In this document: positions 12,606-53,972 of the stretch, one piece after another | Numbering within the stretch: the first letter of the stretch is position 1 | How the letters are laid out: every line of letters begins with the position of its first letter | The notes under the pieces: model-generated | The model's input: only the letters and a program-made list of their open reading frames with translations | Databases searched by the model: none | What the model was told of the DNA's origin: nothing | Made by a program: the position numbers and the translations under genes | From: Syntrophobacterales bacterium | Lineage (GTDB): Bacteria; Desulfobacterota; Desulfobaccia; Desulfobaccales; 0-14-0-80-60-11 | Assembly (NCBI GenBank): GCA_023229795.1 | Contig: JALNYP010000001.1 | Coordinates: forward strand, 5,321-69,320 | Reading direction: 5' to 3' | Length of the DNA: 64,000 nucleotides

Positions 12606-13016
12606 TTACCAAGCTACCTTATACGGAACCGTGTCTGAAGCATCATAAGTCTCAGGTGAATATTCCAGAACTTGAGAATATTTGTTGGACCTATAGGCAT
12701 GAGCTACTTTCGGGCCTATAGTTAGCCTGTCTCCAGCCTGTACCAGCACCGTCTCCTTGATGCCGCTCTCAAGGTCCTCCAAAAGTAACTCCATTTCTCC
12801 TGACAATATATAGACGTGTTCTGTCTTTCTTTTGTGGTAGTGGTGCCCTCTTTCTTGTCCAGCTTTATCTAAATCCCAATATACCAAGTGCTTGTATGCC
12901 TCATTGGCGCGGTTTAAGATTTGAACCATTTCTCCTTTGTTTGAGAAAATTCTGCGCTCTGAATCGCCATTTCCATCTGTGGGAAGCTTTTCAATGTCAA
13001 CCTTGACTATTAACAT
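12606..13016 (-). CDS. Cupin-fold protein, FdtA/WxcM-like (possible dTDP-4-keto-6-deoxyhexose isomerase/epimerase)
   Basis: ERGHHYHKRKTEHVYILSGEMELLLEDLESG resembles the RGxHxHK...Q..x.L.G....L.D.G core of sugar 3,4-ketoisomerase cupins. A strong GGAGG RBS overlaps the stop of the upstream gene. AT-rich relative to the flanks. Confidence 0.6.
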   Translation of the reverse strand: MLIVKVDIEKLPTDGNGDSERRIFSNKGEMVQILNRANEAYKHLVYWDLDKAGQERGHHYHKRKTEHVYILSGEMELLLEDLESGIKETVLVQAGDRLTIGPKVAHAYRSNKYSQVLEYSPETYDASDTVPYKVAW

Positions 13017-13026
13017 AGCTTTCCTC

Positions 13027-14613
13027 CTATTCGAAAAATGAATTTTCGACTGCTTTAGACGACCCACAGCTATGAACCAAGCTGAGAACTGCTGCCGCTA
13101 GTGCCAATGGAACATAGTCCTTAATACCAGCTTTTATCTCCTCCGCTCTTTTATTCAGAGAATGCCTTTCTTTTGCTAATTTCTCCCTGCCAACTTCTCT
13201 CAAGAACCTAACAAAATCAGATGGCGTAAAGGGGATAGCTATGAACTTCTCCGATTCAAAAGAATCCTCAATACAACCTAATATATGTCGATAGCTTCGC
13301 TTGATCCTAACTTCACCAACTAGTCCGACTTCAAAAAAATGTGTCTCTCTTACTAAGGCTAAAAATACAATATCAGCCTCACTTACTTCTAATCCGGTTT
13401 CTTGTTTAATTTCACGAATGGCTGCGGCGAAAAATGGATTTGGAATAGTAGATGATGTATCCGGCTGCATATTAACCATCCCAGCCGAACCTGCTTGCCA
13501 ACTCTGCCAACAGTGCATAACCTTGCTTTGATTACGTTTTTGGATGACTAGACGTTCTGTCCCATCAGGTTCTTGTGTAATAATATTGATTGTAACAGTC
13601 AGAGGATTTGCTAAAAGAGAATCACTAAAGTTCGTAACAGATTTTTTTTCTACTTCTATGAGACCACTTCTTTTAATATTTTCTGTGAGAGATGATTCAA
13701 GTGCATGGTTAGTAGCTAAAAAAGTATAATAATCAGTAGATTGAAGCCTTAATTCTAATCCGCGGAAACCTTCTGTATCGTCACGCATAGGTTTAAAGTC
13801 TGTCAAACGTGCAAGCCGGCCATTATATAAGACTTGCGCTTTGTCCTTAGCAATCTTGATCTTCTCTTCCAGGACCTTATTGCATAACTGGCGAAGTTCC
13901 GAAGGTAAGCTTTTTAAAGTGTAGGAGGGGCGAGGCTTCCATCTATGGGTTATCATTCCTAATTTCCCATTATGATATTCATATAAGCCATCTCCCTCCA
14001 GTATAACAATAGGGATTTTTAATCTATCAAAAAAGTATGGAGTTATTGCTATTAATTCTTTGTTAATTGGAGTGGTTTTGATAGGGGAAACAATAGCTAT
14101 CGGGGCTATAGAAAATGCGCCTGCTAAATGACAACAATGAATAACCCCTTGCCATGTTGTCTCTATCCAAATGGGGATTGATAAATCAGAAGTGTGTACC
14201 TGGACTTCAAATTCGATCGTTAGCGCTATTTCCTCTTTATTGTTCTTCGTATTTGGGAGTCCACCTTCGAAATTATAGGTAAGGTATTTATCTCGTTTTC
14301 CTTCCGATTCGCGAATAGTTTTTTTAGCACTTTTAAGACTTGCCTTCCTGCCTCCACTTAATCCAAACAAGGATACACCAAAAGAACTTTCAACTTGCTT
14401 TTCTGAGGCAAGATTAGACCAACCTGAAAGCTGAGGGTTTTTAATAGTGAATTTGTTTGGGTCAAAGACAATAGATATCTTGAAGCGCCTTCCATAGTGG
14501 GTCAATCGCCTAAAACCCCGAGGAGAAGCAAAGGCAATAGAGATTGTTAATACAATATTGCCTTTAGAATCCTGAGATGCTTTTGTGAAGAATTGAATAT
14601 TGTTTGAATTCAT
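13027..14613 (-). CDS. Orphan 528-aa protein: unknown N-terminal domain plus C-terminal Nudix-like fold with a degenerate Nudix box
   Basis: Long uninterrupted ORF in AT-rich DNA. The C-terminal half contains ...FFAAAIREIKQETGLEV..., which matches REUxEExGU with E->Q. The upstream Glu of the box is missing. I recognise no family for residues 1-230. Confidence 0.7.
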   Translation of the reverse strand: MNSNNIQFFTKASQDSKGNIVLTISIAFASPRGFRRLTHYGRRFKISIVFDPNKFTIKNPQLSGWSNLASEKQVESSFGVSLFGLSGGRKASLKSAKKTIRESEGKRDKYLTYNFEGGLPNTKNNKEEIALTIEFEVQVHTSDLSIPIWIETTWQGVIHCCHLAGAFSIAPIAIVSPIKTTPINKELIAITPYFFDRLKIPIVILEGDGLYEYHNGKLGMITHRWKPRPSYTLKSLPSELRQLCNKVLEEKIKIAKDKAQVLYNGRLARLTDFKPMRDDTEGFRGLELRLQSTDYYTFLATNHALESSLTENIKRSGLIEVEKKSVTNFSDSLLANPLTVTINIITQEPDGTERLVIQKRNQSKVMHCWQSWQAGSAGMVNMQPDTSSTIPNPFFAAAIREIKQETGLEVSEADIVFLALVRETHFFEVGLVGEVRIKRSYRHILGCIEDSFESEKFIAIPFTPSDFVRFLREVGREKLAKERHSLNKRAEEIKAGIKDYVPLALAAAVLSLVHSCGSSKAVENSFFE

Positions 14614-40883: not shown

Positions 40884-41021
40884 GGCGAGTTGGAGGAATG
40901 GTGCGCAGTGCGCACCCTACGTTAAGATTGCACTTGGCAATAATTTCCGTTCCCAAGTGCAACTTGGGAACGAGGGGAAAACTGCTATTTTCATAATAAA
41001 ACGCATCGGAGAATTGCCTTC

Positions 41022-44312: not shown

Positions 44313-45344
44313 ATGCGACTAGATTTCCACTTTTATACGATCTATGTCCTGTCAAGAGTTGTGGGTTTCAGTCCGGATAACGCCTATGTCATAGCTTATG
44401 CTTCACAATATACGGATGATGAAGCTAGTGAGAATCCCATATTGTTCGAAAACGGCGGTGAGCTTGAACCAATCATTACGGCTCATCGGATTTTTGACCC
44501 GGGGGCAGTCACAGAGAGAATCTGTAAGAAGGTGTGGATTCCATTCCATTTTGTGCCTGGGAATTTAGGAATAGGTGATGAGCAAATGCTCACCAGAGCC
44601 AATAGTTCATTGACGCAAGCAATGATTAATGAATTGTTGAGTTACGATTTATTACCTTATAGCCGCCATCTTTTAGGCATTATGCTGCATGCCTATGCAG
44701 ATACCTGGTCACATCAAAATTTCATGGGCATGGTTAATGGAATGAATGAAGCTTCACAGCTGAGGGTGAATGGAGAAGATATTTGGCTCTATAACCTCGC
44801 ACCCGCCCTCGGCCATGCGCAAACCGGGGCTACGCCGGATGAACCGAGGCTGGAATGGGAATATCTTGATTATAAGGGTGAGCTTCATCGGGTGGCCAAT
44901 TATAATCGAGCTATAGAGGCGGCGCAAAATTGTCATAAGGTGCTATCTCAGTTCATTGATAAATTTGAGGATGACTTCCGTGATTCACAGTTCATTCCCT
45001 GGGAGCAGATTGCAGGGAAGATCATGGAGTTATTTCGAACACCAACCGATTTAGCGGGGTCCGTAACTGCTTGGGGAGAGGCCATTACTGCTAGTGAATT
45101 TGGATTTCAATCGCAAGGCAAAGATATCAATTTAATCTATGATGCCAGTGAATGGTTCAATGTGGCAATTAAATCTGAATCGATTCTAAATCAAGAATCA
45201 GGTCAATTCATAGAATGTTTTTTTAAAAATGATAATTATGAATCAAGTGACCTGAAGTATTTTAATGAGGCCGCGGGTTTTTATTGGTCTACTTTATTTA
45301 ATAATAACGCGGAGAGATTTGGTTTGAATAGTGCTTTGATTTAA
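44313..45344 (+). CDS. Hypothetical protein with His/Asp motifs reminiscent of the zinc phospholipase C / P1-nuclease fold (AT-rich insertion)
   Basis: 343-aa uninterrupted ORF in AT-rich DNA. Motifs FHFYTIYV...AYASQYTDD, IPFHFVPG, LHAYADTWSHQNF, LGHAQTGATPDEP. The family assignment is tentative. Confidence 0.65.
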   Translation: MRLDFHFYTIYVLSRVVGFSPDNAYVIAYASQYTDDEASENPILFENGGELEPIITAHRIFDPGAVTERICKKVWIPFHFVPGNLGIGDEQMLTRANSSLTQAMINELLSYDLLPYSRHLLGIMLHAYADTWSHQNFMGMVNGMNEASQLRVNGEDIWLYNLAPALGHAQTGATPDEPRLEWEYLDYKGELHRVANYNRAIEAAQNCHKVLSQFIDKFEDDFRDSQFIPWEQIAGKIMELFRTPTDLAGSVTAWGEAITASEFGFQSQGKDINLIYDASEWFNVAIKSESILNQESGQFIECFFKNDNYESSDLKYFNEAAGFYWSTLFNNNAERFGLNSALI

Positions 45345-46763: not shown

Positions 46764-46808
46764 GCTTTCACCTCGTTCCCAAGTGCAACTTGGGAACGAG
46801 GTGAAAGC
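46764..46808. repeat. Perfect 21-bp-stem hairpin (GTTCCCAAGT-GCA-ACTTGGGAAC core family)
   Basis: GCTTTCACCTCGTTCCCAAGT gca ACTTGGGAACGAGGTGAAAGC. The same core occurs at 40949-40973, with variants at 48521-48545 and 48603-48628. Confidence 0.9.
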
Positions 46809-46828: not shown

Positions 46829-47395
46829 ATGATCCGTGCTTTCCTGGCCATAGAGATGCCTGACAGCTTCCGGACCGGCCTGGCCCTGGTCCAGGGGGAG
46901 CTGAAGCGCAGCCAGGCCGACGTGCGCTGGGTGGCGCCGGGCAATATTCATCTGACGTTGAAGTTCTTCGGGAACGTCCCCGATGACGAGATCGACACCC
47001 TGGCCCTGGCGGCCGGGGAGGTGGCGCAAGAAGAGGAGCCCTTTCAGCTCAAGGCGACCATTGCCGGGGCCTTTCCGTCCCCCAAGGCCCCCCGGGTGGT
47101 GTGGCTGGGGCTGGGCGGCGACGTGGTGCCCCTGAACCGGCTGTATCATAAGCTGGAGAAGGCCTTCGCGGCCCTGGGGTATCTCCCGGAAGGCCGGGCC
47201 TTCCATCCCCACCTCACGCTGGGCCGGGTCAAGTCCCCCATGAACCGGGAGAAGCTGGCCCGGATGCTGGAAAAGATGCCGCCCATGGACTGGCCGCCTT
47301 TCGCGGTGAAGGAGTTGATCCTGTTTCAGAGCGTCTTGTCGCCCCAGGGGTCGAGATATACGCCGTTGAAGGTGATTCCGTTGGGTAAAGTGTAG
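46829..47395 (+). CDS. thpR: RNA 2',3'-cyclic phosphodiesterase (2H family, LigT/ThpR)
   Basis: Two HxTx motifs (HLTLKF and HPHLTLGRV). 188 aa. Confidence 0.88.
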   Translation: MIRAFLAIEMPDSFRTGLALVQGELKRSQADVRWVAPGNIHLTLKFFGNVPDDEIDTLALAAGEVAQEEEPFQLKATIAGAFPSPKAPRVVWLGLGGDVVPLNRLYHKLEKAFAALGYLPEGRAFHPHLTLGRVKSPMNREKLARMLEKMPPMDWPPFAVKELILFQSVLSPQGSRYTPLKVIPLGKV

Positions 47396-47498
47396 GGTGG
47401 CCATTGCCCACCATTTATCTGAGCACCATATTGGCGCCGCCGCGCCGGGGGAAGAAAAGGACTTGACCAAAACCGGCCAATGTATTACATTGTAAGAC

Positions 47499-47720
47499 AT
47501 GAAGACCAACACATTGACCATCAGACTTGACGAGGAGTTGGATAAACTCCTGACCAAGGCGGCGAAGCAAGCGGGAAAGAATCGGAGTGAGATTGCCCGT
47601 GAGGCGTTGCGCCGCCAACTTCGGGTCAGTCAGTTCGAAGCCCTCCGCAGGAAGATTATGCCTTTCGCGGAGGCGCGGGGATATCTCACCGATGAGGACG
47701 TGTTCCAGGAAGTTTCATGA
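47499..47720 (+). CDS. Ribbon-helix-helix (CopG-like) antitoxin
   Basis: LTIRLDEELDKLLTKAAKQAGKNRSEIAREALRRQL. 4-nt overlap with the downstream PIN gene. Confidence 0.8.
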   Translation: MKTNTLTIRLDEELDKLLTKAAKQAGKNRSEIAREALRRQLRVSQFEALRRKIMPFAEARGYLTDEDVFQEVS

Positions 47721-48121
47721 GAGTTCTCCTGGACACCAACGTCATCGTCAGCGCGGTTGCGACCCGGGGGCTGTGCGCCGACGTCTTTCGTGCGGTTCTA
47801 GCAGCACATGAACTAGTCACCTGTCCACAGGTTCTTCAGGAGGTCCGGCGCATCTTGAGTATGAAGTTCGGGGTCCCGGAACCGTTGATCGCGGAATATC
47901 TGGAACTTATCGGGCAAGAAGCCATCGTGGCCGAGCCTGAAGACTTGCCGGACCTCCCCATCCAGGACCGGGATGACGCGCCCATCGTCGCGGCGGCCAT
48001 CGCCGCCCGGGCGCAGGTCCTGGTTACCGGCGATCACGAGCTGCAAGGCCTCAAGAACATCGAGCAACTAAGGATTATTTCCCCGAGGGCGTTCTGGGAA
48101 GAACTAACGGCCCAGGAATAA
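47717..48121 (+). CDS. PIN-domain toxin (type II TA)
   Basis: MRVLLDTNVIVSAV..., DRDDAPIVAAAI..., LVTGD are the acidic PIN residues. Confidence 0.8.
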   Translation: MRVLLDTNVIVSAVATRGLCADVFRAVLAAHELVTCPQVLQEVRRILSMKFGVPEPLIAEYLELIGQEAIVAEPEDLPDLPIQDRDDAPIVAAAIAARAQVLVTGDHELQGLKNIEQLRIISPRAFWEELTAQE

Positions 48122-48195
48122 AGGTTTGGCAGGGTGCGTCTTACGCACCATTGCAGAAGTCTCGGACATGGCGATCGCGTTATGGTGCTTCAAGC

Positions 48196-48380
48196 CGCAC
48201 CTCACCCTGGGCCGGGTGAAATCCCCGATGAACCGGGAGAAACTGGCCCGGATGCTGGAGAAGATGCCGCCGGTGGACTGGCCGCCCTTTGCGGTGAAGC
48301 AGTTGATCCTGTTTCAGAGCGTGTTGTCGCCGCAAGGGTCGAAATATACGCCGTTGAAGGCGATTCCCTTGGGGAGATAA
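48196..48380 (+). pseudogene. Orphan duplicate of the 3' end of thpR
   Basis: It encodes PHLTLGRVKSPMNREKLARMLEKMPPVDWPPFAVKQLILFQSVLSPQGSKYTPLKAIPLGR. By hand alignment it has 19 substitutions over 59 codons relative to 47208-47395, 14 of them synonymous. There is no 5' part of the gene. Confidence 0.85.
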
Positions 48381-48413: not shown

Positions 48414-48628
48414 ATAGGGCGGCCCTTGGCCGCCGAAAAGAATTGGCGTGCAGGGCACGCCCTACATGGCTGTTCCGGGCACAGGCTGGAAAGCCTGTGC
48501 TACCAACAGCATTTTTTTCTGGTTCCCAAGCTGGGCTGGGAACCCTATTGAGTGCAGAGCTATGCTTTGCGAAATATTTCGGCCCGTTAGCCAAACTACG
48601 ATTTCCCAAGCAAAGCTTGGGAACGAGG
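48414..48628. repeat. Cluster of at least five REP-like hairpins from three dispersed families
   Basis: TAGGGCGGCCcttGGCCGCC, GGCGTGCagGGCACGCCCTAC, GCACAGGCTggaaAGCCTGTGC, GGTTCCCAgctgggcTGGGAACC and TTCCCAAGCaaaGCTTGGGAA, back to back. Confidence 0.8.
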
Positions 48629-48640
48629 AAAACCGATAAC

Positions 48641-48996
48641 GTGGAATTCCTTAAGACTATAGCAATAATTGTAGGAGTTATGGTTAGCGTAATAGGTATA
48701 ATGGGCGGAATTTTTTCTTTGCCAAATAGTTATAGGCGCTTTAGAAAAGGATTTTATCCACATGGTGAAAAGGGTACAGGTTCTATTGTACTATCCAAAA
48801 AAATAATAAATGAAAGACAGTTTGTAACTTTCCTTGTTATTGAAGATATTTTTCAATTTATTAAAGCATTTCTTCAACCAAAGGAATGGGGAGGGGAATT
48901 TGAATCAATAGAAAAAATTGGAGAATATTATAAAATAGTAATTTCCTATCCGAAAGAAAAAGAATTCAATTTCTATATAACCAAGGGGAACAAAAA

Positions 48997-49000
<4 letters not shown>
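48641..49000 (+). CDS. Small AT-rich membrane-anchored hypothetical protein, stop overlapping the recA start
   Basis: GTG start with a [33 protein letters not shown] (one TM helix) followed by a Lys/Glu-rich domain. The ATGA overlap with recA falls at 48997-49000. Codon composition is unlike the flanks. Confidence 0.5.
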
Positions 49001-50028: not shown

Positions 50029-52671
50029 ATGACCAGCCGCGAGATCCGGGAGACCTTTTTACGTTTTTTCGCCTCCAAAGGCCACACCAGGGTGACCAGT
50101 TCCTCCTTGGTTCCCGCCGGAGACCCCACCCTGCTGTTTACCAACGCCGGGATGGTGCAATTTAAAAAGGTGTTCCTGGGGGAAGACCCCCGCCCCTATA
50201 CCCGGGCCGCCACCTCCCAGAAGTGCGTCCGGGCCGGCGGCAAACACAACGACCTGGAAAACGTGGGCTTTACCGCCCGCCACCACACCTTCTTTGAGAT
50301 GCTGGGGAATTTTTCCTTCGGCGACTATTTCAAGGAAGGGGTCATCGAGATGGCCTGGGAACTCCTGACCCAACATTATAAACTCCCGGCGGATAAGCTC
50401 TGGGCCACCGTGTTCCATGAAGACGAAGACGCGGCCCGCCTCTGGGAGAAGATCGCCGGGCTGCCGCCGGACCGCATCATCGGCATGGGCGAAAAAGACA
50501 ACTTTTGGGCCATGGGGGACACCGGGCCCTGCGGCCCCTGCTCCGAAATCCTCATTGATCAGGGCGAGAGCATGGCCTGCGGCCCGGAGTGCGGCATCGG
50601 CAAGTGCGAATGCGACCGCTATCTCGAGATCTGGAACCTGGTCTTCATGCAGTATAACCGGACCCCGGACGGCGTCCTGCACCCCCTGCCCAAACCCAGT
50701 ATCGACACGGGTATGGGCCTGGAGCGCCTCTGCGCGGTCATCCAGGGGGTCAAGAGCAATTTCGACTGCGACCTCTTGCGGCCGGTGATCGCGGGGGTCG
50801 AAGAGCTGGCCGGCCAGGCATACGGCGCCAGCGACACGCAGAACGTGCCCTTCCGGGTCATCGCGGATCATTCCCGGGCCACCGCTTTTCTCATTGCCGA
50901 CGGCGTGCTGCCCTCCAACGAGGGCCGGGGCTACGTGCTCAGGCGCATTATGCGCCGGGCCATCCGGTTCGGGCGGCTCCTGAACCTGCCCACCCCGTTT
51001 CTGGCCAGAGTCTGCGACCGGGTGGTGGACCTCATGGGCGAGGTCTATCCCGAACTGCACCAGATGCACCATATCATGGCCCAGGTGGTGACCAGCGAAG
51101 AAGAGCGTTTTGCCGACACCCTGGACCATGGCCTGAAGCTCCTGGGCGATGAGCTGGAGTACCTCAAGCACCACAGCCTGAAGATCCTGCCGGGAGAGGT
51201 GGCCTTCAAGCTCTACGACACCTACGGCTTCCCTCTGGACCTGGTCCAGGACACCCTGCGGGAAGAGGGGCTGGTGCTGGACCTGGAAGGCTTCGAGGCG
51301 AACATGCGGGCCCAGAAGGAGGCCTCCCGGCAGTCCTGGAAAGGCGGGCCGGGGGAAGAGCTGCCCGCGGTCTATCAGGAGCTGGCGGAATGGCCAGCCA
51401 CGCAATTCCTGGGCTATGAGGCCCTGGAGGCCGACAGCACCATCCTGGCCCTCATCGTGGAGGGCGGCCACAACTCTCAGGCCGAAGCCGGGGAGGACGT
51501 GGAGGTCATCACCGGGGCCACGCCGTTTTACGGCGAGTCCGGCGGCCAGGTGGGGGACACGGGGCTGATCTATGGCGACGGCTGGTCCATCCGCATCAGC
51601 GGCACCCAAAAACTGCCCAACGACCTCATGGTGCATGAGGGCAAGGTCGAGGCCGGCACCGTTCACGTCAATGACCCGGCGCACCTGGAAGTGGACGCGG
51701 CCCGGCGCCGCCGCATCATGGCCCACCACACCGCCACCCACCTCCTCCAGGCCGTGTTGCGGCGCCATTTGGGCGACCACGTCAAGCAGTCCGGCTCCCT
51801 GGTGGACCCGGAGCGCCTGCGCTTCGACTTTACCCACTACCAGGCCATCACCCCTGAGGAACTGGAGGCCATCGAACTGGATCTGAACGAGGCCGTGGCC
51901 GCCAACCTGCCGGTACACACGGATAAGATGTCCATGACCGAGGCCCTGGAGCAGGGAGCCACCGCCCTGTTCGAGGAAAAGTACGGCGACGAAGTGCGGG
52001 TGGTGAGCGTCCCCGAGGTCAGCCAGGAACTCTGCGGCGGCACCCATGTGGAGCGCACCGGCGATCTGGGGCTCTGTAAAATCACCACCGAGACCTCTAT
52101 TGCCGCGGGTATCCGCCGCATCGAGGCGGTGTGCGGCGTGGAAGCGGTGAAGCTCACCCAGGACCAGGCCCGGGAACTGGACCAGGCCGCGGGCCTTCTC
52201 AAGGGCGGCCGGGCCGACCTGGTGACCCGGCTGGAAAAGATGCTGGCCAACCAGAAAAAACTGGAAAAAGAAGTGGAGGCCCTCAAGGGCCGCCTGGCTT
52301 CCACCCAGGCCCGAGACCTGGTGGATCAGGTGCGCCAGGTGGAGGGGGTGCAAGTCCTGGCCCTGAAGGTGGACGCCGCGGACCCCAAGAGCCTCCGGGA
52401 CTTTGCGGTGAAATTCCAGGATAAGCTGAAAAGCGGCATCGTGGTCCTGGGCAGCGACGCGGGCGACAAGGCCATGCTCATCGCCCTGGTATCCAAAGAC
52501 CTGACCAAACGCTTCCCTGCCGGGGAGATCATCAAAGCCATCGCCCCTACCATCGGCGGCAGCGGCGGCGGCCGCCCCGATATGGCCCAGGCCGGCGGCC
52601 CGGACAAGGACAAAATCCCTGCTGCTTTGGAGATGGCGTATGAGGTGATTGGTAGGAAGGTCGAGGAATAA
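50029..52671 (+). CDS. alaS: Alanine--tRNA ligase
   Basis: FTNAGMVQFK, KHNDLENVG, editing-domain HTATHLL and the C-terminal DHHA1 GGGRPDMAQAGG. 880 aa. Confidence 0.95.
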   Translation: MTSREIRETFLRFFASKGHTRVTSSSLVPAGDPTLLFTNAGMVQFKKVFLGEDPRPYTRAATSQKCVRAGGKHNDLENVGFTARHHTFFEMLGNFSFGDYFKEGVIEMAWELLTQHYKLPADKLWATVFHEDEDAARLWEKIAGLPPDRIIGMGEKDNFWAMGDTGPCGPCSEILIDQGESMACGPECGIGKCECDRYLEIWNLVFMQYNRTPDGVLHPLPKPSIDTGMGLERLCAVIQGVKSNFDCDLLRPVIAGVEELAGQAYGASDTQNVPFRVIADHSRATAFLIADGVLPSNEGRGYVLRRIMRRAIRFGRLLNLPTPFLARVCDRVVDLMGEVYPELHQMHHIMAQVVTSEEERFADTLDHGLKLLGDELEYLKHHSLKILPGEVAFKLYDTYGFPLDLVQDTLREEGLVLDLEGFEANMRAQKEASRQSWKGGPGEELPAVYQELAEWPATQFLGYEALEADSTILALIVEGGHNSQAEAGEDVEVITGATPFYGESGGQVGDTGLIYGDGWSIRISGTQKLPNDLMVHEGKVEAGTVHVNDPAHLEVDAARRRRIMAHHTATHLLQAVLRRHLGDHVKQSGSLVDPERLRFDFTHYQAITPEELEAIELDLNEAVAANLPVHTDKMSMTEALEQGATALFEEKYGDEVRVVSVPEVSQELCGGTHVERTGDLGLCKITTETSIAAGIRRIEAVCGVEAVKLTQDQARELDQAAGLLKGGRADLVTRLEKMLANQKKLEKEVEALKGRLASTQARDLVDQVRQVEGVQVLALKVDAADPKSLRDFAVKFQDKLKSGIVVLGSDAGDKAMLIALVSKDLTKRFPAGEIIKAIAPTIGGSGGGRPDMAQAGGPDKDKIPAALEMAYEVIGRKVEE

Positions 52672-52710
52672 GAAAATATCGTCAATTTCTCAGCTTAATT
52701 GGAGATGGTT

Positions 52711-52932
52711 ATGCCTAATAAATTTACCGCGGTAATTACCAAAGAAGAAGAATGGTATGTGGCTTATTGCATGGAGTTAGGAGTGGTGAGCCAGGGGAAA
52801 ACCATCGAAGAAGCCCAAGCTAATCTGCGGGAGGCCGTTGAGCTTTACCTCGAAAGCTTTGGAGCAGAAGACCTTCCCAAAACCACCGGAGAAATGATGC
52901 TCTATCCCTTTGAGGTGGCAGTAGGTGGCTAA
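52711..52932 (+). CDS. hicB: HicB-family antitoxin
   Basis: FTAVITKEEEWYVAYCMELGVVSQGKTIEEAQANLREAVELYLE. Overlaps the downstream hicA. Confidence 0.8.
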   Translation: MPNKFTAVITKEEEWYVAYCMELGVVSQGKTIEEAQANLREAVELYLESFGAEDLPKTTGEMMLYPFEVAVGG

Positions 52933-53140
52933 AATTCCTGCCTTATCCGGTGAGAACCTGATTAAGGCTCTAAAGAAAGCAGGATTTCACCAGGTGCGCA
53001 CAAGGGGTAGCCATGTAAGCTTGGAGAATGGCCCTTATCGAACCGTGGTGCCGCTTCACGATGAGCTTTCCCGAGGAACCCTCTTGGCAATTTTGAAGCA
53101 GTGCGGTTTATCAAAGGAAGAGCTTTTAAAGTTACTCTAG
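52925..53140 (+). CDS. hicA: HicA-family mRNA-interferase toxin
   Basis: LSGENLIKALKKAGFHQVRTRGSHVSL...VVPLH.ELSRGTLLAILKQCGLSKEE. GTG start. Confidence 0.8.
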   Translation: MAKIPALSGENLIKALKKAGFHQVRTRGSHVSLENGPYRTVVPLHDELSRGTLLAILKQCGLSKEELLKLL

Positions 53141-53172
53141 ATGACACGGGATTACAAGCTGACCAGAGGCGG

Positions 53173-53271
53173 CGCCCCGACATGGCCCAGGCCGGGGGCC
53201 TGGATAAGGACAAAATCCCCGCTGCCCTGGAGATGGCGTATGAGGTGATCGCTAAGAAGGCGAAGGGGTAA
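53173..53271 (+). pseudogene. Orphan duplicate of the 3' end of alaS
   Basis: It encodes RPDMAQAGGLDKDKIPAALEMAYEVIAKKAKG*, against RPDMAQAGGPDKDKIPAALEMAYEVIGRKVEE* at 52573-52671. The offset is exactly 600 nt and I counted 15 nucleotide differences in 99 nt by hand. Confidence 0.85.
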
Positions 53272-53345
53272 AGATTGGGGGGAGGGGCTAAGGTCGGGAG
53301 CTTTTTAACCCCTCCCACAATCCCGTAAGTAATGTGGGGTGTTCC

Positions 53346-53558
53346 ATGAAAAAGCATAGATTCACCGTATTGATCGAACGGGATGATGATGGTTACTTAG
53401 TGGCCATGGTTCCGGCTCTCAAGAGCTGCTATACGCAAGCGAAGACTATGGAAGAACTCATGCCCCGGATCAAAGAAGTCATAGAACTGTGCTTGCAGGA
53501 AGAAGAACCGGTGATTATGAGTTTTGAGGGAGTTCAGCAGATAGAGATTGTGGCATGA
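53346..53558 (+). CDS. hicB: HicB-family antitoxin (second copy)
   Basis: FTVLIERDDDGYLVAMVPALKSCYTQAKTMEELMPRIKEVIELCLQEE. Confidence 0.75.
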   Translation: MKKHRFTVLIERDDDGYLVAMVPALKSCYTQAKTMEELMPRIKEVIELCLQEEEPVIMSFEGVQQIEIVA

Positions 53559-53790
53559 GCCGTCTGCCACCATCAGTCCTGGCCTGATGGTAAAATTTCT
53601 TCTGGAAATAGGATTTGAGAAGAGCCCCCAACATGGGAGCCATATCTTTTTCCGCCATCCTGATGGCCGCACCGCCACAGTTCCATTCCATAAAGGGGAA
53701 GATTTGGGTCGCGGTTTGACCAGCAAAATTCTCCACGATATAGATGTCTCGCGCGACTTTTTCTTGGCCTGGCTGGCAAAAAATCCATGA
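53555..53790 (+). pseudogene. hicA: HicA-family toxin with an early frameshift
   Basis: The ATG at 53555 overlaps the hicB stop (ATGA) and reads MSRLPPSVLA* (stop 53585). The HicA body (ISPGLMVKFLLEIGFEKSPQHGSHIFFRHPDGRTATVPFH...) is in the -1 frame. One missing base in CCA CCn restores MSRLPPISPGL. Confidence 0.65.
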
Positions 53791-53972
53791 GATGGTGCGA
53801 CCTCTCCTGTGAATACGCCTCTTTTCCCCGGGTCCAGGCCGTGGATGGGGCCGGGTCGTGCCGCAGCTTTGCGGCTCTGTATTGCGCCAAGCTCGGTCGG
53901 CTGGTGCACAAGAACGCCCCGTGTCCCTGCGATGAGAAAGCCGATCTTGGAGACCAGGGGCAGAAGACCTGA
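53787..53972 (+). CDS. Small Cys-rich hypothetical protein
   Basis: MRWCDLSCEYASFPRVQAVDGAGSCRSFAALYCAKLGRLVHKNAPCPC has six Cys. Host-like G+C. The ATG overlaps the hicA-2 stop. No family recognised. Confidence 0.35.
   Translation: MRWCDLSCEYASFPRVQAVDGAGSCRSFAALYCAKLGRLVHKNAPCPCDEKADLGDQGQKT

Follow-up and report, generated by a model that had tools for sequence, protein, structure and literature searches.

Toxin-antitoxin pairs between duplicated gene ends at alaS and thpR of a Syntrophobacterales bacterium

The DNA described here, 64,000 nucleotides of a Syntrophobacterales bacterium (assembly GCA_023229795.1, contig JALNYP010000001.1) that were analysed as a whole and are called the window below, carries at the 3'-end of alaS, the alanyl-tRNA synthetase gene, a small toxin-antitoxin (TA) pair of the HicBA type lying between two copies of the gene's last 99 nt. 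Some 5 kb upstream, a TA pair of the VapBC type lies between two copies of the 3'-end of thpR. An original prediction, made from the sequence without database searches, had pointed to both places and had taken them for the outcome of a recurrent mechanism.

Toxin-antitoxin pairs between duplicated ends of alaS and thpR

The features at alaS are the following, in positions of the window:

50029-52671, + strand: alaS (alanyl-tRNA synthetase, 880 aa), an intact open reading frame (ORF) whose final 99 nt are repeat copy 1
52573-52671, + strand: repeat copy 1 (c1), the functional alaS 3'-end, from repeat search and alignment
52672-52710, + strand: AT-rich spacer of 39 nt (GC 0.33) with the hicB ribosome-binding region
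52711-52932, + strand: hicB1, predicted short antitoxin of 73 aa, from an ATG start (the listed ORF begins with TTG at 52699)
52925-53140, + strand: hicA1, predicted toxin of 71 aa, Pfam HicA_toxin (PF07927)
53141-53165, + strand: spacer of 25 nt between the hicA stop and copy 2 (a gap of 0-8 nt in other lineages)
53166-53271, + strand: repeat copy 2 (c2), read as the displaced, non-functional alaS 3'-end; its left edge is degenerate (1-nt deletion) and the remainder is in the alaS frame
53276-53322, + strand: G-rich, terminator-like hairpin (inverted repeat I2), native sequence downstream of alaS

Repeat search and alignment gave a 99-nt direct repeat, 52573-52671 against 53173-53271, with 85% identity, 15 differences and a start-to-start distance of exactly 600 nt, and self-blastn matched the pair with E = 3e-26. 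The homology truly begins about 6 nt 5' of the called repeat (GGCGGC), which is where copy 2 has its 1-nt deletion. The core, that is the first 24 codons, contains 8 differences, 7 of them synonymous and one changing Pro to Leu; the tail, the last 8 codons, contains 7 nucleotide differences over 5 codons, every one of them non-synonymous. Copy 2 translates as RPDMAQAGGLDKDKIPAALEMAYEVIAKKAKG followed by a stop. Only two long local repeats of comparable quality were found in the window, this pair (D2) and the thpR pair (D1).

Regarding composition, the core of c1 (52573-52644) is host-like, with a GC content of 0.64. The tail of c1 (52645-52671, GRKVEE and stop) has a low, cassette-like GC content of 0.44 and resembles no relative's tail (identity 48-70%); the tail of copy 2 (AKKAKG and stop, GC of its 27 nt 0.52) is the family consensus, with 74-93% identity to the relatives. 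The GC content of alaS is 0.645, against 0.48 in hicBA, and the GC at third codon positions (GC3) is 0.85 against 0.50 (0.51 for hicA1 by itself). Therefore, the hicBA pair is foreign.

HicA1 matches Pfam HicA_toxin over positions 2-58 of the 58 of the profile (E = 2.9e-17, 62.9 bits with a cut-off of 27) as well as the PDB structures 1whz and 5yrz_B (HicA), and the GSH motif is visible in RGSHVSL; there is no record of the exact protein in public assemblies. For HicB1 all the Pfam scores were sub-threshold (DUF7387 27.0 against 27.9, UPF0150 24.5 against 27.3, HicB_lk 19 against 27), and a solved structure was matched weakly (PDB 2yzt, E = 0.0066). Its gene reaches 8 nt into the start of hicA1 and is kept together with hicA in all relatives, the proteins at the same position being 79-85% identical, and it is mainly by this position and conservation that HicB1 is assigned as a putative antitoxin. 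A (G)AGGTG..TTATG motif is conserved 5' of hicB in the relatives. Because the promoter scan found no sigma-70-like promoter before hicB and no DNA-binding domain was found in HicB1, hicBA1 is probably co-transcribed with alaS by read-through. The G-rich hairpin behind copy 2 folds with -25.1 kcal/mol, but its z of -1.3 is not significant; the element lies likewise 3' of alaS or of c2 in L081, L085 and L139 (L numbers designate the loci compared with the window).

The particulars predicted for this locus were all recovered: the 99-nt duplication at a distance of 600 nt with its 15 differences, both translations, the mostly synonymous changes of the core beside a diverged tail, and a complete hicB-hicA pair in between, with HicA identified by Pfam and HicB by sub-threshold matches, position and conservation. 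The earlier interpretation is refined in four points: what lies downstream is the resident gene end that was displaced and does not belong to the cassette, the mostly synonymous differences indicate that the copies diverged as functional alleles, relatives exchange the cassette horizontally, and restriction-modification systems offer a named precedent. We regard it as almost certain that c2 represents a displaced gene end and that the cassette next to it is foreign.

The second locus, about 5 kb away, had been predicted to have the same succession of gene 3'-end, TA pair and gene 3'-end, and this is what we found, with thpR, an antitoxin of the ribbon-helix-helix (RHH) type, a PIN toxin and a copy of the thpR 3'-end:

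46829-47395, + strand: intact thpR, for a 2H phosphoesterase of the LigT family; positions 47200-47385 in its 3' part are repeat copy 1
47463-48121, + strand: vapBC cassette with its own promoter-like site (TTGACC-17-TACATT at 47463-47491)
47499-47720, + strand: RHH antitoxin (VapB), RHH_1 with 4e-9 and 36.5 bits vs 20.5
47717-48121, + strand: predicted PIN toxin (VapC), PIN_3 with 1.7e-16 and 61.5 bits vs 27
48181-48380, + strand: thpR copy 2, the displaced thpR 3'-end, whose tail and downstream flank match the empty site L010

Here the repeat search gave 186 nt (47200-47385 and 48188-48373) with 89% identity and a spacing of 988, and self-blastn E = 2.5e-65. As in VapBC systems, the PIN gene is preceded by an overlapping antitoxin gene (4 nt, 47717-47720). 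A palindrome accompanies the promoter-like site upstream of vapBC. Copy 1 of thpR lacks one G just before the native TAA, so its frame enters an element resembling repetitive extragenic palindromes (REP-like), whose TAG serves as stop. In L002, thpR is followed by a vapBC homologous to that of the window (VapB 96% and VapC 87% identical), in the order thpR-vapBC-(another hicBA)-thpR'.

Occupied and empty sites, and the divergence of the copies

The arrangement alaS-hicBA-alaS' was found in more than 10 independently assembled metagenome-assembled genomes (MAGs) of Desulfobaccales or metagenome contigs, from several unrelated projects; L001 and L002, which are different species by GTDB sampling, both have it. 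A scan of metagenomes with the HicA1 alignment returned 63 loci. Copy 2 of alaS is present in L081, L083, L085, L086, L087/L088, L090/L091, L102, L103 and L139, and absent with the cassette kept in L092-L096, L104 and L105. In L005 and L009 the cassette abuts a conserved Cys-rich ORF, and no alaS remnant, not even a degenerate one, was found behind hicBA. The site is empty, with a single alaS end and no cassette, in L003, L004 and L006-L008. A single thpR end, that is an empty thpR site, was found in L001 and L010, and their native thpR tail and downstream flank match copy 2 of the window. Thus, the survey of related genomes for hicBA next to alaS that had been proposed gave many carriers with two alaS 3'-copies and others with a single one.

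An assembly artefact, which the original prediction had named as the way in which it could fail, would be a chimeric join or a repeat collapsed or expanded. In its favour, the window appears to come from a metagenome, its closest matches are Desulfobaccales MAGs (AlaS 88-90% identical), HicA1 is not on record elsewhere and the contig of L086 terminates within copy 2. However, the 15 differences among the 99 positions of the copies follow the codon structure, and two loci in one contig show the same architecture. Because independent assemblies of relatives share alaS-hicBA-alaS', we take the probability of an artefact to be practically nil.

Regarding the state of copy 2, it looks fresh in L086, L139 and L083, lightly damaged in the window (the Pro to Leu change), L001 and L102, and wrecked in L081 (stop codons and an indel), L085 (a 33-nt deletion) and L103 (many substitutions). 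Its left edge, on the toxin side, carries indels or substitutions in every lineage. Near the gene ends, conservation is strongest in the motifs GGGRPDMAQAGG of AlaRS and HLTLGR of ThpR, and it is there, where the identity between species is highest, that the duplicated segments start.

The other way in which the prediction could fail was that copy 2 belongs to a larger conserved ORF in relatives. This is not the case, except in L090 (1601-1880) and L091 (975-1254), where the hicA stop is lost and the frame reads into the alaS remnant, giving HicA-IAAALEQAYEVVAKKAKG and a stop, a natural fusion of a toxin with an AlaRS tail. One may ask whether copy 2 is kept because it is functional, be it as a small peptide, as a C-terminal extension of HicA made by read-through or fusion, or as an RNA in the hicBA 3' untranslated region that mimics the alaS end. 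The fusion would agree with such a role, and so would the intact frame and low dN/dS in many genomes and the locus L140, where the hicA stop is followed in frame by copy 2 and a further ORF ends with a borrowed FabF tail. Nevertheless, copy 2 is among the wrecked ones in three loci, is missing in L005, L009, L092-L096 and L104 despite the kept cassette, does not keep its frame relative to hicA and has no Rfam match. A function of copy 2 is therefore very improbable.

If copy 2 had arisen by duplication in situ and had then decayed neutrally, the ratio of non-synonymous to synonymous divergence (dN/dS) between c1 and c2 should be about 0.5 or more. The estimates, each from the 29-59 codons that a pair offers, are 0.14 for alaS of the window (dN 0.085, dS 0.62), 0.07 for thpR of the window (dN 0.03, dS 0.43; 14 synonymous and 4 non-synonymous codon differences), 0.25 for L001, 0.11 for L002, 0.08 for L083, 0.14 for L102 and 0.16 for clpB in L121, with dS ranging from 0.4 to 0.8. 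The second copies of L001, L002 and L083, which have the same junction between hicA and copy 2, differ from one another with dN/dS 0.07-0.17 and dS 0.5-0.9. In L083 copy 2 still encodes an AlaRS tail without damage, and even so the dS between it and copy 1 of that locus is 0.57. Because the c1/c2 ratios lie far below what decay predicts, the two copies have in all likelihood diverged mostly as parts of working genes, as functional alleles do, and were joined later. In the thpR pair the differences are evenly spread and the longest identical tract is at most 20 nt, so that recent gene conversion is unlikely there. We also tried gene conversion alone as the cause of the similarity of the copies; it fits L086 and L139 and fails for the pairs with low dN and dS of 0.4-0.7.

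These values bear on the explanation by a separate in-situ event at each gene, in which an unknown machinery would make a cut with a long stagger and leave the cassette between identical host copies, with later vertical descent, decay of copy 2 and occasional conversion. Such an insertion mode has been described for restriction-modification (RM) systems, and several observations agree with it: the repeat lengths vary from 26 to 246 nt, there are young-looking pairs with 95-100% identity (L118, L128, L135 and L086), the hicBA cassettes linked to alaS are monophyletic, with a junction of TAA directly to TTCGCCTACCGAC common to L001, L002, L081, L083, L085 and L086, and c1 and c2 share lineage-specific residues (EMAYEVI in alaS of the window, MNREKLARMLEKM in thpR). 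However, it does not agree with dN/dS values of 0.07-0.25, with the synonymous divergence of the undamaged L083 copy, with the even differences in thpR, with the cassette-like composition of the c1 tail or with the separate histories of cassette and host gene. We regard it as rather unlikely.

Those separate histories were seen in both directions. Among L001, L002, L083 and L085 the dS of hicBA is 0.064-0.12, whereas that of alaS is 0.22 over the whole gene and 0.25-0.43 over the 80 codons just upstream of the repeat. Between the window and this group, the dS of hicBA is 1.1-1.4 and that of alaS 0.31-0.45. Because the divergence of hicBA is thus decoupled from that of alaS, the cassette has moved recently among some of the species, exchanged horizontally among relatives, and the cassette of the window is of a different lineage that landed at the same site. 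Furthermore, alaS codons 780-880 show a dS of 0.52-0.54 among L001, L002 and L003, against 0.12-0.36 over the rest of the gene, which suggests repeated replacement of the gene end; a raised dS in the last 100 codons is expected if ends are swapped.

Recurrence at other genes and a candidate mechanism

Of the 54 hicBA cassettes with at least 150 nt on each side, 20 (37%) lie between direct repeats of 25 nt or more, against 84 of 2680 random 430-nt intervals of the same loci (3.1%). The alaS cases in this count are mutually related, but there are eight independent targets besides: ClpB (L121), lipoyl synthase (lipA, L137), beta-ketoacyl synthase (fabF, with three copies of the gene end, L140), an RRM protein (L128), an EamA-like protein (L115/L118) and the 5'-end of a Zn-ribbon gene (L112), all of them Pfam-confirmed, together with a beta-helix protein (L135) and the target in L101. 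Other TA families show the same scar, as we found MNT-HepT between duplicated 5'-ends of a Pfam-confirmed DEAD_2 helicase (L120/L143), HEPN-MNT between duplicated 5'-ends of the downstream gene (L117/L118) and a pair of the PIN/MazE type between 105-nt repeats (L126).

Across all cases there are at least 10 different target genes without a common core sequence, and both 3'-ends and 5'-ends are duplicated. Where related cassettes lie in different targets, they have in common only the coding sequence and no more than 40 nt upstream of it, and copy 2 begins 0-25 nt past the toxin stop in most cases. A strict polarity, with the partial copy always after the toxin, was considered and rejected, since HEPN-MNT of L118 is followed by the complete gene. 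The idea of a recurrent mechanism, as opposed to chance, thus gains from at least eight other host genes in unrelated contigs, and the layout with duplicated ends is very probably a general mode for TA cassettes.

At L140 (3643-5877) we observed besides that hicB has its leader and start codon from the gene that natively lies downstream, and that an inserted 498-aa ORF ends in a borrowed FabF tail (..SFGFGGHNACLLLQKV and stop). Successive insertions at one gene end have led to gene fusions there.

Concerning the machinery, we found no integrase, transposase or RAYT (REP-associated tyrosine transposase) among the approximately 58 ORFs of the window and no recombinase inside the cassettes. Neither cassette of the window has terminal inverted repeats, no cassette termini are conserved across the loci, and no tRNA or Rfam match was found as an integration target. 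Transposons, insertion sequences and miniature inverted-repeat transposable elements are defined otherwise, as the present cassettes have no terminal inverted repeats, long duplications of variable length and homology in the coding part only.

A site-specific integration could nevertheless be imagined, by a miniature non-autonomous element or the remnant of a decayed island that carries a surrogate 3'-end in its attachment (att) site and is served by a tyrosine or serine recombinase from elsewhere. An element-borne 3'-end with the original end displaced is a hallmark of such elements, TA genes often survive the decay of islands, and copy 2 sets in at nearly the same alaS position in several lineages. 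Against this, integrase elements and cis-mobilizable elements (CIMEs) would have a recombinase and a shared core, and here we have none in any cassette or in the 64-kb window, many targets at 3'- and 5'-ends alike, repeats of 26-246 nt, coding sequence only in common between related cassettes of different targets, and no target of the tRNA type. This explanation is improbable.

The reading that we prefer, and hold to be moderately probable, is a transfer of donor gene ends by homologous recombination of the host combined with addiction. A promoter-less foreign hicBA would have been inserted at the alaS 3'-end, with the 99-nt repeat as its footprint; the upstream copy would complete a working alaS, and the downstream copy would be the resident end pushed aside, with the native terminator still behind it. 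No element-encoded recombinase would be needed, as the host's homologous recombination, presumably dependent on RecA, would do the work. The related donor DNA may have had the form alaS 3'-end, hicBA, partial alaS 3'-end, and would recombine with the alaS end of the recipient, both alaS pieces acting as homology arms aimed at one conserved resident segment. The left crossover would place the donor tail and the cassette behind the resident gene, and the right crossover would leave the resident tail and the native downstream sequence behind the cassette as copy 2. As a variant, one junction may be homologous and the other illegitimate; homology-facilitated illegitimate recombination occurs in transformable bacteria.

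Recombination between c1 and c2 would loop the cassette out, but the losers would be poisoned by the longer-lived toxin and the structure would persist. Going by their family membership, these TA modules may have such an addiction function. The thpR/vapBC locus would have arisen by the same process, with a different cassette at a different gene.

This transfer of donor ends would account for the cassette-like tail of c1, for the native tail and terminator at c2, for the allele-like divergence of the copies, for the decoupled phylogenies and for the starts at GGGRPDMAQAGG and HLTLGR. It would also account for the left edge of c2, always degenerate and never part of a working gene.

Several points weigh against this reading. 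It is based on assembled sequence, and transfer intermediates, excised circles and polymorphism within populations lie outside it. Few codons stand behind each dN/dS value, and the alaS lineages are not mutually independent. The cassettes linked to alaS are largely one clade with a conserved junction between hicA and copy 2, which fits one ancient insertion with vertical descent. L086 and L139 have copies with 97-99% identity, which gene conversion or a fresh in-situ duplication fits as well as transfer within a population. Some first event would have had to create the duplication at each new gene, and the model leaves it unexplained, as it does the start of copy 2 at 0-25 nt past the toxin stop. 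Finally, a recombinase may act in trans from elsewhere in the genome.

Going further, type II TA pairs between two copies of a conserved gene end may perhaps form a class of minimal mobile elements free of recombinases, whose arms would let the host RecA guide the cassette to the same housekeeping gene in any related genome; each arrival would turn the resident end into a new copy 2, and reversal would be blocked by the toxin. We offer this as a tentative proposal only.

The surrounding genes and comparison with known systems

The gene order around the two loci is pgpA, cinA, thpR, recA, alaS, a small Cys-rich ORF and lemA, and the closest relatives, Desulfobaccales MAGs whose AlaS is 71-90% identical, have kept it. 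Behind copy 2 there is one more TA pair:

53346-53790, + strand: hicB2-hicA2 (Pfam), a second pair unrelated to hicBA1 and without flanking repeats

A tandem duplication of the alaS end together with hicBA was considered as the source of the two neighbouring pairs and was rejected, as tblastn between hicBA1 and hicBA2 gave no match at E <= 1e-5 in the window and the two belong to separate cassette families. Both cassettes are present in the order of the window in L102 and L105. The start of hicA2 is uncertain, being either a TTG or an ATG followed by a frameshift. Its stop overlaps the ATG of the conserved Cys-rich ORF of 61 aa (53787-53972; MRWCDLSCEYASFP...), which has no Pfam match and whose place downstream of alaS is conserved in relatives; this same ATG is overlapped by the hicA1 stop in L005. 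Between alaS and lemA there is a variable islet, with low-GC ORFs of 389 and 192 aa in L003 (3879-5596), two small adjacent ORFs in L001 (8329-8804) that look like another TA pair (Phd/RelE-like by eye) and several low-GC ORFs in L002 (9277-11410).

Six REP-like elements (TAGGGYG and a GC-rich hairpin) lie between genes of the window, at 40900, 45469, 46738, 47393, 48415 and 54026, and in two of them the TAG ends a gene, namely cinA (46738) and the functional copy of thpR (47393). A perfect palindrome, TTCCCAAG-N5-CTTGGGAA, occurs three times (40950-40970, 46776-46796 and 48603-48623), where chance would give none. The 48603 copy has GAGG behind it and stands just 5' of an inserted low-GC ORF. 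The same palindrome arrangement is found upstream of hicB in loci of the L001 type. The REP-like GTAGGG hairpins and the palindrome were both considered as cassette ends and rejected, and they are resident intergenic repeats, because they are found at empty sites (L003) and elsewhere in the window.

Other insertions of low GC content were also seen. A gene of the DUF6765 family (44313-45344, GC 0.31-0.50 against about 0.65 in the host) lies between pgpA and cinA, which are adjacent or nearly so in L001, L004 and L010, and it has no flanking direct repeat. Between the thpR remnant and recA, the ORF 48641-49000 (GC 0.26-0.43) has no Pfam match and a predicted N-terminal membrane segment, and L006 has a homologue of 53% identity in the same place. 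Within the sugar-nucleotide/rhamnose cluster, a low-GC island (12606-14613, GC down to 0.35) holds an ORF with a cupin domain and a 528-aa ORF without Pfam match.

TA pairs are among the most mobile and abundant genes of free-living prokaryotes, and the movement of their chromosomal copies outside plasmids, phages, integrons and transposons is poorly understood. With 37% of the sampled hicBA carrying long direct repeats of the end of a neighbour gene, they have a common and recognisable scar. Duplicated fragments of gene ends beside small gene pairs can serve as a simple computational marker for finding addiction and defence cassettes and for dating their arrival. Annotators should be warned that such fragments are displaced gene ends and not misassemblies. 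A concrete hypothesis, spread by homologous recombination with built-in arms and stabilisation by addiction, becomes testable through repeats that diverge as alleles do and through the unequal divergence of cassette and host gene.

Among known systems, integron gene cassettes are minimal, often promoter-less, frequently TA pairs, and expressed from an upstream host promoter. The cassette at alaS is likewise a minimal promoter-less TA cassette; however, its target is duplicated, and integron insertion does not duplicate the target. No integron integrase was found, and no attC-like site was seen in the inverted-repeat search, beyond which no search for it was made.

Phage 21 and e14 at icd, and ICESt1 and CIME elements at fda, are integrative elements that bring along a surrogate end for the protein-coding gene which they target. 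As in these elements, the gene is kept intact by an imported 3'-end with mostly synonymous changes and the original end lies beyond the insert. Unlike them, with their integrase and fixed att core, the present loci show neither of the two, nor a fixed repeat length.

A duplication sandwiching an insertion, formed through one homologous and one non-homologous junction with incoming DNA, was described by Kojima & Kobayashi 2015 (PMC4615327) as a single 1.6-kb duplication around a 50-kb integrative and conjugative element. Our preferred reading has in common with that case host recombination with related incoming DNA and no dedicated recombinase; it differs in the compact architecture of 0.5-1 kb, which recurs at many genes.

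The closest likeness in structure is with the insertion with long target duplication described for RM gene complexes (Nobusato et al. 2000, Gene 259:99; Furuta, Abe & Kobayashi 2010, PMC2853133). In those cases variable direct repeats of about 30-420 bp, often over the 3'-end of a neighbour, surround a unit with no mobility gene (PMC2853133). Their mechanism is unsolved, and the authors suggest DNA breakage by the RM system and a life cycle that uses the repeats (PMC2853133; PMC3874152). Measured by the definition of Furuta et al. 2010, our loci have repeats of 99 nt (alaS) and 186 nt (thpR), single copies in L003-L009 (alaS) and L001/L010 (thpR), and inserts of about 0.5 and 0.8 kb, under the 20 kb of that definition, that hold the TA pair alone and no other mobile-element gene; the cargo, HicBA or VapBC, is not an RM system. 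The two kinds of insertion thus have in common a small addiction unit without mobility gene, long variable repeats and a single copy at the empty site, and they differ in that the cargo here consists of type II TA pairs (HicBA, VapBC, HEPN/MNT).

No report of the architecture with duplicated ends was found for type II TA systems in the accessible literature, and the allele-like divergence of the repeats together with the decoupled phylogeny of the cassette is first shown here. The scar links TA cassettes to a type of rearrangement documented before for RM systems. If true, the reading with homing arms would provide the mechanism that insertion with long target duplication has lacked since 2000, and would account for the presence of the scar on addiction modules (RM, TA) in particular. 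The toxin families of the type II TA systems concerned are generally described as RNases and not as DNA cutters. Because of this, the driver suggested for RM systems, DNA breakage, cannot apply here. Thus, if the RM and TA scars are one phenomenon, DNA cutting by the cargo is not what drives it, and the trait shared by both would be addiction.

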